NCBI GenBank assembly: GCA_965368975.1
Contig: CBDUPA010000021.1
Location: forward strand, 50,352-114,351
Reading direction: 5' to 3'
From: an uncultured bacterium
Lineage (GTDB): Bacteria; Acidobacteriota; Thermoanaerobaculia; Multivoradales; JAHZIX01
DNA: 64,000 bases
The first letter of the stretch is position 1. Every line of letters begins with the position of its first letter. A model generated the notes under the pieces. It made no database searches. It was not told the DNA's origin and saw nothing but the letters and a program-made list of their open reading frames with translations. Below, piece after piece: positions 15,623-45,374 of this stretch. The position numbers were made by a program, and so were the translations under genes.

Positions 15623-17038
15623 ATGGCTGATCAAGAGCTGGACCTGATCGTATTGGGCAGCGGCCCCGGCGGCTACGTGGCCGCGATCCGCGCCACGCAG
15701 CTGGGCCTGACCACCGCCGTGGTGGAAAAGGACCCGAAGCTGGGCGGCACCTGCCTGCACCGCGGCTGCATTCCCACCAAGGCGCTGCTGCACACCGCCT
15801 CGACGCTCGACCAGGTGCGCAAGGCCGGCGACCTGGGGATCGAGGTCGCGGAACCGACGCTCGACGTCGCCAAGGCGCAGCAGAACAAGCAGAAGGTGGT
15901 CGACAAGAACGCCAAGGGCATCGAGTTCCTGTTCAAGAAGAACAAGATCCAGAAGCTGCACGGCTTCGGCCGTCTGACCGGTGCCCACGAGGTCACAGTC
16001 GAGAAGGACGGCACGACGACGACGCATCGTGCTCGCCACATCCTCGTCGCCACCGGCTCGGTGCCGCGCGACATCCCGATCGCGCCGGCAGACGGTGAGA
16101 AGGTGGTCAATTCGGACCACATCCTGAATCTGCAACGCGTGCCCGAAACGCTGGTGGTGCTCGGCGCCGGTGCCGTGGGCACCGAGTTCGCCTCGATCTA
16201 CACCTCCTTCGGCAGCAAGGTGACGCTGGTCGAGATGCTGCCGCGCATCCTGCCGATCGAGGATGCAGACATCTCCAAGGAGCTGACTCGGGTGCTCAAG
16301 AAGCGCGGCATTCAGGTACGCGTCGACACCAAGCTGCAGGCCTGCAAGACGACCAAGAAGGGCGTGTCGCTGACGCTCGAGAAGGGCGGCAAGACCGAGA
16401 CCCTGGACGCCGAGATGCTGCTGGTCGCGGTCGGTCGTGCGCCGGTATCGGCAGACTTGGGACTCGAAGCGCTGGGTGTGCAGGTGGAGCGTGGCTACAT
16501 CGGTGTCAACGAGTTCATGCAGACCGCCGTGCCCCACATCTATGCCATCGGCGATGTGGTCAATACGCCCTGGCTGGCCCACGTCGCTTCGGCCGAGGGC
16601 ATCCTGGCGGTCGAGCACATGGCCAATCAGAAAGGGGCCCAGGACGTCGATCCGCGGCCGATCAACTACGCGCAGATTCCCTCGTGTACCTACTGCGAGC
16701 CGGAAGTGGCGAGCGTCGGCTTGACCGAGGCACAGGCCAAGGAAAAGGGCTACGACGTCCAGGTCGGTCAATTCCCCTTCTCCGCGCTGGCCAAAGCGGC
16801 GATCCTGGGCAAGCCCGAGGGCTTCGTCAAGGTGGTGCGCGAGACGCGCTACGACGAGTTGCTCGGCGTCCACATCGTCGGTGCCCACGCCACCGACCTG
16901 ATTGCCGAAGCCTGTGTCGCGCTCAAGATCGAGAGCACCAACGAAGAGCTGCTGCGCACCATCCACGCGCATCCAACGCTATCCGAGGCGGTCGCGGAAG
17001 CGGCCCACGCCGCCACCGGCCACGCCATTCATATCTAA
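15623..17038 (+). CDS. lpdA: Dihydrolipoyl dehydrogenase (E3)
   Basis: GSGPGGYVAA, GGTCLHRGCIPTK, GAGAVG, HAHPTLSE. Confidence 0.97.
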   Translation: MADQELDLIVLGSGPGGYVAAIRATQLGLTTAVVEKDPKLGGTCLHRGCIPTKALLHTASTLDQVRKAGDLGIEVAEPTLDVAKAQQNKQKVVDKNAKGIEFLFKKNKIQKLHGFGRLTGAHEVTVEKDGTTTTHRARHILVATGSVPRDIPIAPADGEKVVNSDHILNLQRVPETLVVLGAGAVGTEFASIYTSFGSKVTLVEMLPRILPIEDADISKELTRVLKKRGIQVRVDTKLQACKTTKKGVSLTLEKGGKTETLDAEMLLVAVGRAPVSADLGLEALGVQVERGYIGVNEFMQTAVPHIYAIGDVVNTPWLAHVASAEGILAVEHMANQKGAQDVDPRPINYAQIPSCTYCEPEVASVGLTEAQAKEKGYDVQVGQFPFSALAKAAILGKPEGFVKVVRETRYDELLGVHIVGAHATDLIAEACVALKIESTNEELLRTIHAHPTLSEAVAEAAHAATGHAIHI

Positions 17039-17056: not shown

Positions 17057-18403
17057 ATGGCCACTGAAGTCGTCATGCCCCAGATGGGCGAGAGCATCGC
17101 CGAAGGCACCATCACCCGCTGGCTGATCCAGCCCGGCGAGAAGGTGGAGCGAGACCAGCCGCTATTCGAGATGTCGACCGACAAGGTCGACGCCGAAATT
17201 CCCAGCCCCGCGGACGGCGTCTTGCTGGAAATCGTCCACGGCGATGGCGAAACGGTCGGAGTCAACGAGGTGGTGGCCTACATCGGCGCCGAGGGCGAAA
17301 AGCCTGCGGCAGGTGCCGGCAAGCCCGCGGCGGATGCGGCTCGCTCCGAGGAGAAGGCCGCCGCTGCCGCGACCCAGCCGGAAACGGCTGGCGGCAACGG
17401 TAGCGTGACGCTCGAGGAGCGCCTACGCACCCACTCCAGCCCGCTGGTGCGCAACATCGCTGCCAAGGAAGGCATCGACCTGACACAGGTCCCTGGCACC
17501 GGCATCCACGGCCGCGTCACCAAGAGCGACATCCAGACCTACCTGGAGACACCCGCCAGTGAGAGAGCCACCAGTGGGAGAGCCGCAGCCGCCAGCGCCA
17601 AGGCAACCCCGGCAGCAGCTTCCGCTCCAGCCCCAGCCGCGCGTCCGGTCGGCGACTTTCACGTACCTGCGTACACTGCGGGCGAGAACGTCGAGATCGT
17701 GCCGATGTCCAAGATCAGGCAGATCACGGCCGCTCACATGGCCTACTCCAAGGCCACCTCGGCGCACGTCTCGACCGTCTTCCACATCGACATGACGCGC
17801 GTCGACAAGGTCCGCAAGCGGGCCAAGAACCGCTTCCTGCAAGCCAACGGTACCAAGCTGACCTTCATGCCCTTCATCTTCAAGGCGGTCTCCGGCGCGC
17901 TGCGTGCCTACCCGCAGATCAACGCCGCCCTCGACGGTACCAACATCGTCTACAAGAAGGACATCAACCTCGGCATGGCCGTGGCACTCGACCACGGCTT
18001 GATCGTGCCGGTGCTGCGCAACGCCGACCAGCTCAGCCTGGCTGGCCTGGCCAAGGGCGCCAATGACCTGGCAGACCGCGCGCGCTCGAAGAAGCTCAGC
18101 CCCGACGAGATCAGGGGCGGCACCTTCACGATCACCAACCCGGGCGTTTTCGGCAGCCTCTTCGGCACGCCGGTGATCAACCAACCACAGGTGGCGATCT
18201 TGGGGATCGGCACGATCGAGAAGCGGCCGGTAGTGGTGACCGACGCCGAAGGCAACGACAACCTGGCGATCCGCACCATGTCCTACTTCGCCATCACCTT
18301 CGATCACCGCCTGATCGACGGTGCCGATGCGGACCACTTCATGATCCACATCAAGAACACGCTGCAAGACGAGACCTGGGACGAGCTGAAGCCCTATCTC
18401 TGA
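17057..18403 (+). CDS. 2-oxo-acid dehydrogenase E2, dihydrolipoamide acyltransferase (SucB/DlaT type)
   Basis: Lipoyl domain (STDKVDAEIPSP), E3-binding domain (GTGIHGRVTKSD), catalytic FDHRLIDGA. Confidence 0.94.
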   Translation: MATEVVMPQMGESIAEGTITRWLIQPGEKVERDQPLFEMSTDKVDAEIPSPADGVLLEIVHGDGETVGVNEVVAYIGAEGEKPAAGAGKPAADAARSEEKAAAAATQPETAGGNGSVTLEERLRTHSSPLVRNIAAKEGIDLTQVPGTGIHGRVTKSDIQTYLETPASERATSGRAAAASAKATPAAASAPAPAARPVGDFHVPAYTAGENVEIVPMSKIRQITAAHMAYSKATSAHVSTVFHIDMTRVDKVRKRAKNRFLQANGTKLTFMPFIFKAVSGALRAYPQINAALDGTNIVYKKDINLGMAVALDHGLIVPVLRNADQLSLAGLAKGANDLADRARSKKLSPDEIRGGTFTITNPGVFGSLFGTPVINQPQVAILGIGTIEKRPVVVTDAEGNDNLAIRTMSYFAITFDHRLIDGADADHFMIHIKNTLQDETWDELKPYL

Positions 18404-18579
18404 GACTCAGCTCCCGTCACCCTCCTTGCCGAAGAGCACCGCCACTCTCGTGAGAGGGTGGCGAGATGCAGAAATTTCGTCTCGTTTGTCCCGCTTTCGG
18501 GGTCGAGCTGCACATAGAAAGTTTCTATCTGTGATTCGATCGACAGCGAGTCAAAAAATCCAACAAAGTTTGCCCCTCG

Positions 18580-18673
18580 TGTCACGCTTCGGCGCCGCCG
18601 CGCACTCCTACAACGAAAGAAGTGGACCCTTCTGAGTATGCGGCGATCCAAAAAGGATGCGCCGCCTTTTTTT
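18580..18673 (+). ncRNA. Repeat cassette copy 1: promoter-like motif, ~60-nt two-hairpin RNA, intrinsic terminator
   Basis: TGTCACGCTT-N12-GCACTCCTACAACGAAAGAAGTGGACCCTTCTGAGTATGCGGCGATCCAAAAAGGATGCGCCGCC-T7. The repeat is certain; RNA function is inferred. Confidence 0.55.
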
Positions 18674-18786
18674 GTCTCCAAGACCCCCTCCGGCCCCCCC
18701 GCCCTCCGCGACCGTCTTTCTCCCATTTCCGAAAATCTCCCGCCTGACGGGCACTTCAAAGAAATTTCAGGAAATCTCTCTAGCGG

Positions 18787-18881
18787 TGTCACGTTTTGGC
18801 ACCGGGGCGCACTCCTACAACGAAAGAAGTGGACCCTTCTGAGTATGCGGCGATCCAAAAAGGACACGCCGCCTTTTTTTT
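18787..18881 (+). ncRNA. Repeat cassette copy 2
   Basis: TGTCACGTTT-N12, then the same core, ending GGACACGCCGCC-T8. Confidence 0.55.
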
Positions 18882-18950
18882 GCCCAGAAAGCGCCCTGCC
18901 TTGCCCCCTTATCGCCACCACGGAATCAATCAAAAAATTCTCACCCGGCT

Positions 18951-19044
18951 TGTCACGCTTCGGCGGCGAGATGCACTCCTATAACGAAAGAAGTGGACCC
19001 TTCTGAGTATGCGGCGATCCAAAAGGACACGCCGCCTTTTTTTT
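18951..19044 (+). ncRNA. Repeat cassette copy 3
   Basis: TGTCACGCTT-N12, then the same core with TATAAC, an A4 loop, and GGACACGCCGCC-T8. Confidence 0.55.
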
Positions 19045-19097
19045 GCCCGAAGGCCCCGGGCAGGGGCCACGGCACGACGGCGCTAGAATGGGCGGCC

Positions 19098-19856
19098 ATG
19101 TCGGCACCCACCTCTCTCGATCCCGATCCCCGCCCTCTCCGGCTACACCGCCGTCTCCGGATACACAGGACGGACGGCGGCTTCCTCGGCCGCTTGGCCT
19201 ACCAAGACGCCAACGCACTACAGACGCATCTGCGCGACGCCGTGCTGGCGGGCACGACACCCGAGCACCTGCTACTGCTCGAGCACCCGCACGTCTTCAC
19301 CCTCGGCCGCAACGCCTCGCTCGACGACCTGCGCAGCAGCGAGGCCGATCTGCAGCGCGACGGGATCGCCGTGGTCGAGACGGACCGTGGCGGTCAGATG
19401 ACCTACCACGGCCCCGGTCAGCTGGTCGGCTATCCGATCCTCGATCTCAAGCCCGACCGGCAAGACATCCGGCGCTACATCCGCGATCTGCAGGAAGTGC
19501 TGATCCGGACGCTGGCGGACTTCGGCATCGAGGCCGAACGACGCGATGGCAAAGGCTTCGTCGGCGTGTGGGTGGGAGACGGCAAGATCGCCTCCCTGGG
19601 GGTGCACCTGAAACGCTGGGTGACCACCCACGGATTCGCCCTCAACGTCAGCACGGATCTCGACTACTTCCACCACATCGTGGCTTGCGGCCTTCCCGGG
19701 GTACCGCTGGTGTCGATCGAGCGCTTGACCGGAACACGACCGTCGCTGGAGCAGGTCGCCGAGCGGCTGAGTGGCCACTTCGCCAACATCTTCGAGCGAC
19801 AGCTGGAGCCGGCGAACCTCAGCGCCCTAGGAGCGCCAGCGCCGATGCATCCATAG
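19098..19856 (+). CDS. lipB: Lipoyl(octanoyl) transferase
   Basis: LLLEHPHVFTLGR, DRGGQMTYHGPGQLVGYPI, KIASLGV, HGFALNV, IVACG. Follows lpdA and E2. Confidence 0.95.
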   Translation: MSAPTSLDPDPRPLRLHRRLRIHRTDGGFLGRLAYQDANALQTHLRDAVLAGTTPEHLLLLEHPHVFTLGRNASLDDLRSSEADLQRDGIAVVETDRGGQMTYHGPGQLVGYPILDLKPDRQDIRRYIRDLQEVLIRTLADFGIEAERRDGKGFVGVWVGDGKIASLGVHLKRWVTTHGFALNVSTDLDYFHHIVACGLPGVPLVSIERLTGTRPSLEQVAERLSGHFANIFERQLEPANLSALGAPAPMHP

Positions 19857-43999: not shown

Positions 44000-44129
44000 G
44001 ATCATCTCTCGCAGTAGTCGGTAGCGAGGCACAAGCCTCGCTACTGAATTTTTTAGCGTGGATGTCACGATTTCTCGTCTGCTCGCACTTTAGAGGCAAC
44101 CTAGACGAAAATCCAATCTTGGAGATACC

Positions 44130-45374
44130 ATGTACCATCTTCCTCGCGAGTTGTTCGAGGCTCATTTGGCAGGCGATATTTCCCCCAGAGAGCTTTCAAG
44201 ATTCCTGGCTGAACACCTGATAACCCTCTGCCCCTTGTGCGAAGCGGAGTTACGAGCGGTCCAGCGGAGTCTGGACAATCAAGATCATGGGCAACGAGGG
44301 GAGCCGAAGCCAAGTCCCGAGGATTGGCACCAAGCGCGCAAGTGGATGGAGGAGTTACAGCGGGATCCGATCTCGATCTGGGCGGGCAAGGTTGCCAGAG
44401 CGAGGAAGCGTTTTCGCGGCCCTGCATTCGCCGAACTCATGCTAGAGCAGGCCAGGTTATATCCTGAGAATGCCCTGGAAACTACAACCTGCGCACAGAT
44501 GGCCCTCCCCCGGCAAGGATTTGCCAGTACACGCATTGATGCTATGGCCTGCGCACTGCAGATGAACGCCTATCGCGTGCAGGGCAGCTACGACCGGGCA
44601 CAACAGTACCTGGATCTACTGCCAGCCCTCCTGAATGGAGTCACGAACCCGGCCTGCCAGGCCGAGGCCGCAAGCCTGATTGGCTCTCTCCTCATCGACC
44701 TACGTCATTTCAGCAAGGCGAAGCAGCATCTGAGCTACGCTGCAATTCTCTCCAAGCACATCCTGCGAGACAGTGAACTCAGCGCCAGGACGGCAATCAA
44801 GATATCTGGCATCCACTACTACCAGCGCCAGTGGGACCAGGCTCTGAACGCTCTTCTGCCGGCTTTCCAAGATGTGCAGGAAGAAGAAACACCCCGCATT
44901 TACTTCATCTTGCGCTACAACCTGGCGATGCTCTTCTGCGCAATGAACCATCCAGACGCTGCGCTGGAGCTTCTCCCCGAGGTACAAGCAGGCTTGCGGC
45001 AGCATGGCACCACCATCGACCAGAGGTCACTGCAGTGGCTGGAAGGTCGGATTCACGGGGGTCTGAGCGATCATCATCGCGCTTACCGACTGCTGACAGA
45101 TCTCCGGGATCAATACCTGCAAGAAGGGCAACATTTCTGTGCGGCGATCGTCGCCTGCGACATTTGCTGCCTGCATCTGGATCGAAATGAACTGGACGCC
45201 GCCGTGGAGATCTTGCAACCAGCCCTGTCGACCATGTGCCGCCACTCGCTGCACGAGGAAAGCGAACAGGTTGTGCGCGGCTTGCAGAACGCCCTGCTTC
45301 GAGGTGTATTGACGCTCACGACACTGAAGGCTGCCCTGCCCCACCTGGAACAGGCAGCTCGCGTCGTTCGCTAG
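44130..45374 (+). CDS. TPR protein with an N-terminal anti-sigma-like Zn finger
   Basis: H3...EHLITLCPLC (Hx4CxxC), then helical repeats (RYNLAMLF, LQWLEGRI, CAAIVACDIC). GGAG RBS. Confidence 0.75.
   Translation: MYHLPRELFEAHLAGDISPRELSRFLAEHLITLCPLCEAELRAVQRSLDNQDHGQRGEPKPSPEDWHQARKWMEELQRDPISIWAGKVARARKRFRGPAFAELMLEQARLYPENALETTTCAQMALPRQGFASTRIDAMACALQMNAYRVQGSYDRAQQYLDLLPALLNGVTNPACQAEAASLIGSLLIDLRHFSKAKQHLSYAAILSKHILRDSELSARTAIKISGIHYYQRQWDQALNALLPAFQDVQEEETPRIYFILRYNLAMLFCAMNHPDAALELLPEVQAGLRQHGTTIDQRSLQWLEGRIHGGLSDHHRAYRLLTDLRDQYLQEGQHFCAAIVACDICCLHLDRNELDAAVEILQPALSTMCRHSLHEESEQVVRGLQNALLRGVLTLTTLKAALPHLEQAARVVR

Follow-up and report, generated by a model that had tools for sequence, protein, structure and literature searches.

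A tandem array of putative sibling small RNA genes at the E2-lipB junction in one family of Thermoanaerobaculia (Acidobacteriota)

Short small RNAs (sRNAs) with a conserved 5' seed and a terminator with a U-tail are well known from enterobacteria, where RybB, MicA and MicL depend on sigma-E, whose promoters have the form GGAACTT-N16-TCAAA, and make up the RNA arm of an extracytoplasmic function (ECF) sigma regulon. Acidobacterial RNA motifs such as Acido-1 and Acido-Lenti-1, from a 104-motif comparative-genomics survey, are reportedly held in Rfam. Tandem sibling sRNAs have been described in several other groups, and the available part of PMC4211561 names OmrA/OmrB of E. coli, PrrF1/PrrF2 of P. 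aeruginosa, AbcR1/AbcR2 of Agrobacterium and Sinorhizobium and the csRNAs of Streptococcus. ECF41 target promoters are given, in an excerpt of PMC3426412, as TGTCACA-n16-CGTC, with a spacer of 16 +/- 1 and a -10 element of CGTC or TGTT, and the targets named there are neighbouring COE genes, not sRNAs. Table 1 of a 2022 review (PMC9029176, available in part) lists 4 annotated sRNAs for Acidobacteria against 345 in Proteobacteria; the regulatory RNAs of Acidobacteria are almost unknown. Here we describe an array of three closely similar units between the gene for an E2 dihydrolipoamide acyltransferase and lipB in a 64,000-nucleotide stretch of DNA from an uncultured member of the Thermoanaerobaculia (contig CBDUPA010000021.1, positions 50,352 to 114,351; hereafter the window, whose own numbering is used below). 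The units are very probably independently transcribed sRNA genes. They are preceded by a recurrent promoter motif, TGTCMCG-N15/16-GCACT, and occupy the same locus in every sampled genome of one bacterial family.

Three conserved units between the E2 and lipB genes

The gap between E2 and lipB spans ~690 nt and holds no credible open reading frame (ORF). A repeat search found one family of direct repeats in it, with three copies of 95 nt (18579-18673, 18786-18880 and 18950-19044) at spacings of 207 and 164, the second and third being 93% and 82% identical to the first without gaps. Every copy consists of TGTCACG, 15 variable bases and GCACT, then CCTA(C/T)AACGAAAG, the core AAGTGGACCCTT and CTGAGTAT, and the bodies of all three share the sequence ...GAAAGAAGTGGACCCTTCTGAGTATGCGGCG.... 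The 3' part of each is a GC-rich hairpin, GCGGCG-A-UCC-A4/5-GGA-NN-CGCCGC, followed by T7, T8 and T8 in copies 1-3. Because no U-run follows the hairpin on the minus strand, the units are predicted to be read on the plus strand. Judged from the promoter geometry, from which the 5' ends in Table 1 were predicted, transcription would start ~7 nt after GCACT and 3-7 nt before the invariant core.

The initial annotation of the window, made from the letters alone, had described three tandem cassettes with promoter-like boxes, a body and a terminator, and the repeats and their context are as it described, down to the interior-loop differences and the A5/A4 indel of the loop. That indel shifts the frame, and frames and peptides differ between this genome and its relatives, so a small-ORF reading of the units is out; no ORF is conserved. 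The A-rich tract reported upstream of each unit is there in modest form, at 40-56% A+T in 22 nt against 35% genome-wide. A decayed fourth promoter-like motif, also reported, lies upstream of unit 1 with neither body nor terminator behind it. Its N16 spacing is that of the units in related genomes, and a 14-nt repeat (family D2) ties its promoter spacer to that of unit 3; apart from this remnant, the inter-unit spacers have no repeat in common.

The window's own genome (G000; 7.13 Mb, 99.3% complete) carries only these three copies, at one locus. Through synteny we found the same junction in each of the five further genomes that GTDB places in this family, where E2 is followed by a gap of 380-690 nt and then by lipB, the last encoding a protein 59-66% identical to the G000 LipB. 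Every such gap contains one or two units built alike, TGTC(C/A)CG-N16-GCACT-N10/11-AAGTGGACCCTT-GGT(A)T(G/T)TGCGG-hairpin-T7-9, which brings the total to 11 units in the six family genomes (3 in G000 and 8 in the relatives), with one to three copies per genome. Whole-genome scans of five of the six (G000, G001, G002, G003 and G005) found units in the E2-lipB gap only. A covariance model of 93 positions (R1) has matches in all six family genomes and adds no copy to G000; since the 11 homologous units score 62.7-96.6 bits to this one model, chance is excluded. Across 145 other genomes of the order the model found no unit, with a single match of 25.9 bits.

A pattern capturing all 11 units, applied to 185,579 species genomes, retrieved four loci, all in family members. 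One of these records, JAHZIX010000052.1, comes from a metagenome-assembled genome titled Deltaproteobacteria, a title whose taxonomy is probably wrong, and has two units in the E2-lipB gap, like G003. Narrower queries returned less: an exact 22-mer of the G000 body had no match in genome contigs or in metagenome contigs, a 31-mer with up to 3 mismatches found G000 alone among 400 genomes sampled from the phylum (this pattern is too specific to G000 to reach the relatives), and BLAST of a unit against 40 relatives gave just short GC-rich chance matches to the promoter spacer. Four JGI metagenome loci that match the general pattern have no TGTC box and no terminator and were set aside as chance matches, as were two extra exact 12-mers in G002, which have no sRNA features and lie near the chance expectation of ~0.85 per genome. 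No Rfam 15 family reached its gathering score anywhere in the window, and at E up to 10 the sole match between 17500 and 20000 was a 12-bit Ocean-VII hit at 18395-18409, outside the units. Together these searches support an RNA family that is undescribed, as the initial annotation had proposed for a multicopy sRNA, and apparently specific to one acidobacterial family.

Conservation is concentrated in particular elements of the unit. Columns that show no change in any of the six genomes are those of TGTC-CG and GCACT, a CG ~8 nt downstream, AAGTGGACCCTT, G-T-T-G, the T-run and some of the terminator; the variable parts are the promoter spacer, the stretch from GCACT to CG and the terminator loop. 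Both promoter boxes are invariant in all 11 units save for A or C at position 5 of the first, which reads TGTCCCG in seven of the eight relatives' units and TGTCACG in those of G000. The core AAGTGGACCCTT is identical in 11 of 11 units, and GTAAGTGGACCCTTGGT in all eight of the relatives, whereas LipB has no more than 59-66% identity to that of G000.

Soil and sludge metagenome contigs carry close relatives of the window, and their differences from it are distributed in the same way. The contigs of soil run X2 share ~93% identity with the window. Between 18435 and 19012 they have 26 listed substitutions and 4 listed indels, every one of them outside the -35 heptamers, outside the -10 pentamers and outside the interval from the -10 box to the end of the T-run, elements that make up ~35% of the 576 nt covered (P about 1e-5, by our own arithmetic); differences within ~30 nt of contig ends were not listed, which leaves 9 of the 35 differing letters of X2 unlisted, with at most 3 (record 6) and at most 1 (record 9) of them inside a unit. 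Of the listed changes, five map to the promoter spacers of the three units (18590, 18600, 18804, 18961 and 18965). All 11 substitutions and both indels of sludge run X3 fall in the spacer 18882-18949, and short metagenome contigs over 18601-18641 and 18819-18886, the latter covering copy 2, show no difference at all. At the level of sequence, the case for a real, selected RNA gene family with a new promoter class looks solid.

Table 1. Features of the E2-lipB region, in window coordinates
Feature	Coordinates	Strand	Remarks
lpdA	15623-17038		upstream of E2
E2 dihydrolipoamide acyltransferase gene	17057..18403	+	Pfam 2-oxoacid_dh 1.6e-79, Biotin_lipoyl, E3_binding; left neighbour in all 5 family relatives
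Decayed promoter-like remnant TGTCCCG-N16-GCACA	18487..18514	+	TGTCCCG 18487-93; GCACA 18510-14; no RNA body or terminator behind
Unit 1 promoter	18580..18606	+	-35-like TGTCACG 18580-86; N15; -10-like GCACT 18602-06
Putative sRNA copy 1	18613..18673	+	core AAGTGGACCCTT 18620-31; terminator stem 18640-65; T7 18667-73; R1 62.7 bits; 5' end predicted
Unit 2 promoter	18787..18813	+	TGTCACG 18787-93; N15; GCACT 18809-13
Putative sRNA copy 2	18820..18881	+	core 18827-38; terminator; T8 18874-81; R1 68.7 bits
Unit 3 promoter	18951..18977	+	TGTCACG 18951-57; N15; GCACT 18973-77
Putative sRNA copy 3	18984..19044	+	core 18991-19002; terminator stem 19011-35; T8 19037-44; A4 loop; R1 67.8 bits
TAGAAT, -10 box of lipB's own putative promoter	19084..19089	+	8 nt before ATG (leaderless-type)
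lipB (octanoyl/lipoyl transferase)	19098..19856	+	Pfam LplA-B_cat 1.5e-45; right flank of array

The promoter motif beyond the array and the promoter of lipB

The gap between TGTCMC and nGCACT is 17 bp in the relatives, a -35/-10 geometry, and 16 bp in G000. Many promoters upstream of 48 tRNA genes in G000 are of the canonical form TTGACA-N17-TA(C/T)AAT (also given as TAnAAT), and sigma-70 needs an A at -11, where GCACT has G; these observations support a unit promoter that differs from the housekeeping type. The motif TGTCMCG-N15/16-GCACT occurs at 13 sites in G000 against 2 in a reversed-sequence control, and the counts for the six family genomes are 13, 11, 6, 7, 8 and 8 against 2, 2, 2, 1, 0 and 2 in the controls (53 versus 9). 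Certain other families of the order show an enrichment as well (13 versus 2 in G018, 13 versus 1 in G035), though families f8 and f9 do not, and because this enrichment reaches beyond the family the promoter class appears to be older and wider than the RNA. We consider it well supported that an alternative sigma factor reads the unit promoter, and plausible that this factor is of the ECF type.

Outside the RNA units, the motif sites of G000 are intergenic and often lie behind an A/T-rich tract. Genes behind the motif sites of this genome encode three paralogous TPR proteins (414-433 amino acids, with an N-terminal H-x3-C-x2-C), a TPR histidine kinase, MbtH, a 171-amino-acid secreted protein and small GG-leader peptide ORFs. 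A second motif in the window, TGTCACG-N15-GCACT at 44063-44090, stands behind an A/T-rich tract and 40 nt before the gene for the 414-amino-acid TPR protein (44130-45374), and the TPR paralogues at C22:9648-10937 and C27:17054-18355 have the motif upstream too. Three small ORFs (291-479, 526-696 and 1282-1392) at G000:C11:197700-199300 have K/R-rich 'LxLxxETLKxLE' leaders, each followed by a short core. Two leaders close with GG and one with GA, two cores are rich in Cys, and the motif precedes two of the ORFs. From their sequences they look like precursors of peptide natural products. At two further motif sites, G000:C2:103000-103700 and G000:C1:811700-812300 (both on the minus strand), a strong hairpin and a T-run follow ~190 nt on, with no long ORF, and Rfam had no match at either region. 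The regulon may include further non-coding RNAs, or transcripts with short ORFs, at these two sites.

The genes that flank the array proved to be lpdA and E2 on the left and lipB on the right, as previously annotated. The lipB frame is open from 18993, with the ATG of Table 1 as its likely start. TAG(A/G)AT lies 6-8 nt before the candidate lipB start codon in all six family genomes (the start codons of the relatives were assigned by eye), which suggests a leaderless or almost leaderless lipB transcript, and the TAGAAT of the window agrees with the -10 boxes seen at the tRNA genes. Among 12 genomes of 11 other families, E2 adjoins lipB in three, with the two genes ~10-15 nt apart or in a shared open frame. 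Since E2 and lipB are adjacent there without any units, the array is best read as a family-specific insertion at an old operon junction. An uncoupling of lipB from E2 in this family, with a promoter of its own, is supported by these comparisons, in agreement with what had been suggested from the three terminators. The locus thus appears to document an operon split by an sRNA array, in which lipB gained a leaderless-type promoter of its own.

Two further observations concern this junction. In the genome of another family (G015:C3:232219-235878), E2 and lipB lie within one open frame of 741 amino acids, which may be an E2-lipB fusion or an overlap with no intervening stop. In the window, at 18440-18481, a hairpin CGCCACUCUC-GUG-AGAGGGUGGCG lies directly 3' of the E2 stop, and the terminator scan places a weak terminator-like site at 18460-18481; E2 transcription may end at this hairpin or at the first sRNA terminator.

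RNA architecture, candidate targets and competing explanations

RNAfold predicted two hairpins in each G000 copy (z -2.4 to -3.1), a terminator hairpin was predicted in 11 of 11 bodies, and T7-T9 follow in 11 of 11 units. A simple terminator scanner missed the three G000 terminator hairpins owing to their interior loops; RNAfold folds them. The first hairpin is formed by AGAAG/CUUCU in G000 and would be formed by UAAG/CUUG in the relatives, where its stem has 3-4 bp and lies outside the minimum-energy fold in all eight units. The two-hairpin RNA of the initial annotation is thus borne out in G000, the only genome in which the first stem is stable, and not in its relatives. Compared with these, G000 has two 3-nt insertions flanking the core, which jointly lengthen the first stem to 5 bp; this pairing of insertions is suggestive, but amounts to one event. 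The terminator reads GCGGCG..CGCCGC in G000 and GCGG(G/A)CCC..GGG..CCGC in the relatives, that is, the hairpin is present in both groups with a wholly different sequence, so that structure is kept while sequence changes. In counts made on the relatives' eight units (the three G000 rows were left out, as realignment to the model did not re-register their terminator), one terminator pair is G-C (3), G-U (3) or A-U (1) and the other pairs are invariant. As modelled, the conserved architecture is a largely unpaired 5' segment of ~22 nt followed by a terminator with a U-tail, rather than two hairpins.

We propose that the array consists of three sibling genes, each for a trans-acting sRNA of ~60 nt, each transcribed from its own TGTCMCG-N15/16-GCACT promoter, probably via an alternative sigma factor, and each with an intrinsic terminator of its own, U7-8 tail included, to end the transcript. 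The array would have arisen by insertion at the E2-lipB operon junction in the ancestor of one family of Thermoanaerobaculia, its copy number later changing between one and three through local duplication and decay. The functional part would be the 5' segment, (C)G-(U/G)AAGUGGACCCUU-...-GUAUG, which is invariant and for the most part unpaired and which we expect to pair with mRNAs, and the terminator hairpin and U-tail would serve as an Hfq-binding, stabilising module. An Hfq gene is present in G000 (PF17209, 63.2 bits, G000:C3:387675-387854). Hfq-binding sRNAs are said, in the accessible part of PMC5558911, to need seven or more T/U after the terminator, and a terminator with at least seven U was found in 11 of 11 units. 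By analogy with sRNAs of similar build that carry a 5' seed, we infer that base-pairing with mRNAs is the most likely mechanism. The statement as a whole, that these are sibling trans-acting sRNA genes with non-housekeeping promoters of their own that act by base-pairing, we hold with moderate confidence.

One candidate target was found, in a single relative. Three paralogues in G005 that encode large secreted proteins (with a signal peptide and a Big_7 domain, and located at contig ends) share a conserved 5' region of ~430 nt that contains an sRNA complement of 25-28 nt, with 17+6 bases complementary to the G005 sRNAs and a duplex energy of -46 to -50 kcal/mol. On the mRNA strand the complement reads GCCCGC-UUAUACCAAGGGUCCACUU-GG, and a predicted hairpin, CCAAG[GGUCCA]CUUGG, presents its core in the apical loop. 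These regions (L062 695-1100, L063 ~1420-1900 and L064 ~195-720) start after the intrinsic terminator of the upstream gene, and Rfam returned nothing relevant for the repeat. So long a match suggests that an sRNA fragment was captured in inverted orientation. Apart from the sRNA genes themselves, a 20-mer complement searched with up to 3 mismatches matched only two G005 sites, missing the third, and a single site in G003 that is at chance level.

Several results weigh against the proposal. Covariation is nearly uninformative, with 283 of 500 shuffles reaching the observed values and four first-stem pairs that never vary, and the z-scores of the body folds are unremarkable (-0.2 to -2.3). Target prediction, which had been recommended with the first description of the units and was run here with RNAduplex on start regions from 4221 crudely called G000 genes, gave nothing better than the controls (best -29.9 kcal/mol, against -31.4 to -33.2 for shuffled or reversed queries). 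The core complement, with one mismatch allowed, is not enriched over control in five genomes, and nine one-mismatch core-complement sites in G000 lie outside 5' regions. The long complement is specific to G005 and absent from G000; the secreted-protein family of G005 has no homologue in G000, and no seed complement lies upstream of its homologues in four relatives; the site may be a lineage-specific captured fragment, not an ancestral target. As to the sigma assignment, none of the 29 Sigma70_r2 genes of G000 has a plausibly placed motif within 600 nt upstream at up to one mismatch, the single match near a sigma gene being at -518, with GCACG. The window has no sigma gene adjoining a motif site, and a literature search found no paper on Thermoanaerobaculia together with sigma factors. 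The earlier proposal of an alternative-sigma, ECF-like promoter accordingly stands as far as a non-housekeeping, recurrent motif is concerned, and its ECF part is no more than plausible, given a -10 box of GCACT and these counts.

A bolder extension would place the RNAs, as riboregulators, in an undescribed regulon of an alternative sigma factor in Thermoanaerobaculia (TGTCCCG-N16-GCACT) that also drives peptide precursors, an MbtH/nonribosomal peptide synthetase gene and TPR signalling proteins, with UGGACC/GGUCCA loop-loop kissing as the mode of pairing and with a target acquired in one genus by capture of an inverted sRNA fragment in secreted-protein 5' regions. We offer it tentatively and think it doubtful.

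Instead of pairing with mRNAs, the RNAs might bind a protein, as decoys or titrators of an RNA-binding protein that recognises the AAG-UGGACC-CUU hairpin, extra copies serving to raise the dose. The invariant 12-mer can indeed form a small hairpin that presents UGGACC, the matching 3-nt insertions lengthen this stem in G000, copy number varies as if dosage counted, and the G000 scan yielded no mRNA target. Yet in the relatives the hairpin is as short as described above and absent from the minimum-energy fold, and its pairs, being invariant, lend no covariation support. Each RNA has one conserved GGA (in UGGACC), the second lying in the G000 terminator stem and being replaced in the relatives, and a search for CsrA (PF02599) came up empty in the 99.3%-complete G000 but was positive in three control genomes. 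We judge a protein decoy unlikely, and the GGA-based sponge of the initial annotation finds no support in these results. In its narrower form, a CsrB/RsmZ-type sponge of CsrA, to which the GGA in the potential loop UGGACC might point, it is scarcely tenable with no PF02599 match in the genome and a single conserved GGA per 60 nt where many would be expected, the second being specific to G000.

A role in cis seems still less probable. The units would then be stacked terminators or insulators that end E2, combined with protein-binding boxes that regulate lipB, and would yield no trans product; the fixed position between E2 and lipB in six of six genomes, the three strong terminators right after E2 and the abutting of the two genes where units are absent would all follow. 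Termination alone, however, would explain neither the conservation of a promoter-like motif 60 nt upstream nor the invariance of a 12-25-nt segment ahead of the hairpin, the same motif precedes unrelated genes elsewhere, and lipB has a canonical -10 box after the last unit. No conserved site complementary to the RNAs was found in E2, lipB or their flanks in the six genomes.

A miniature mobile element or selfish repeat that landed three times in the gap, although in line with the high identity between copies and with copy numbers that differ between genomes, is largely refuted and barely worth retaining: no copy lies off the locus in the 7.1-Mb genome, where the three copies at one site also answer the doubt first raised about a transposable element, or in four relatives scanned whole, no terminal or flanking inverted repeats and no target duplications were found, the units stand head-to-tail with unrelated spacers, and the locus is the same although LipB is only ~60% identical between genomes. 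Sibling sRNA genes acting in trans thus remain our preferred reading of the array.

Comparison with known systems

The units resemble the sigma-E-dependent RybB, MicA and MicL in build; the motif here is TGTCMCG-N15/16-GCACT, and outer-membrane-protein targets are not part of the evidence. Like Acido-1 and Acido-Lenti-1 they are acidobacterial non-coding RNA candidates, and they match no Rfam family at E up to 10. The ECF41 promoters, as described in the excerpt cited above (PMC3426412), are similar in the -35-like TGTCAC(G) of the three G000 units and in spacer length, 15-16 here against 16 +/- 1. They differ in the -10 box, which is GCACT in 11 of 11 units, and in the -35 box of the relatives, TGTCCCG in seven of eight units.

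The closest likeness is to the tandem siblings. Like OmrA/B, PrrF1/2, AbcR1/2 and the csRNAs, so far as the available part of PMC4211561 describes them, the units are near-identical, stand head-to-tail in one intergenic region and have a putative promoter and terminator each; the conserved segment would likewise be the seed, and copy number and arrangement differ among related species, which fits local duplication. At least two closely related units, each with its own promoter and terminator, characterise a sibling sRNA array, and this is what the sequence of the locus contains. Unlike those siblings, the units have no sequence or Rfam relationship to any of them, belong to another phylum, number three copies with a decayed fourth promoter, would give shorter RNAs (~55-61 nt) and have a promoter that is neither of the sigma-70 type nor a known regulator box.

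The locus offers a testable sRNA family with a defined promoter class, RNA and promoter class alike being conserved throughout a bacterial family that is mainly known through metagenome bins; its value is that of a new entry point, not of a new principle. Judged by these comparisons, the array is a new family of a known kind, putative sibling sRNAs under an alternative promoter, and a member of none of the families with which we compared it.

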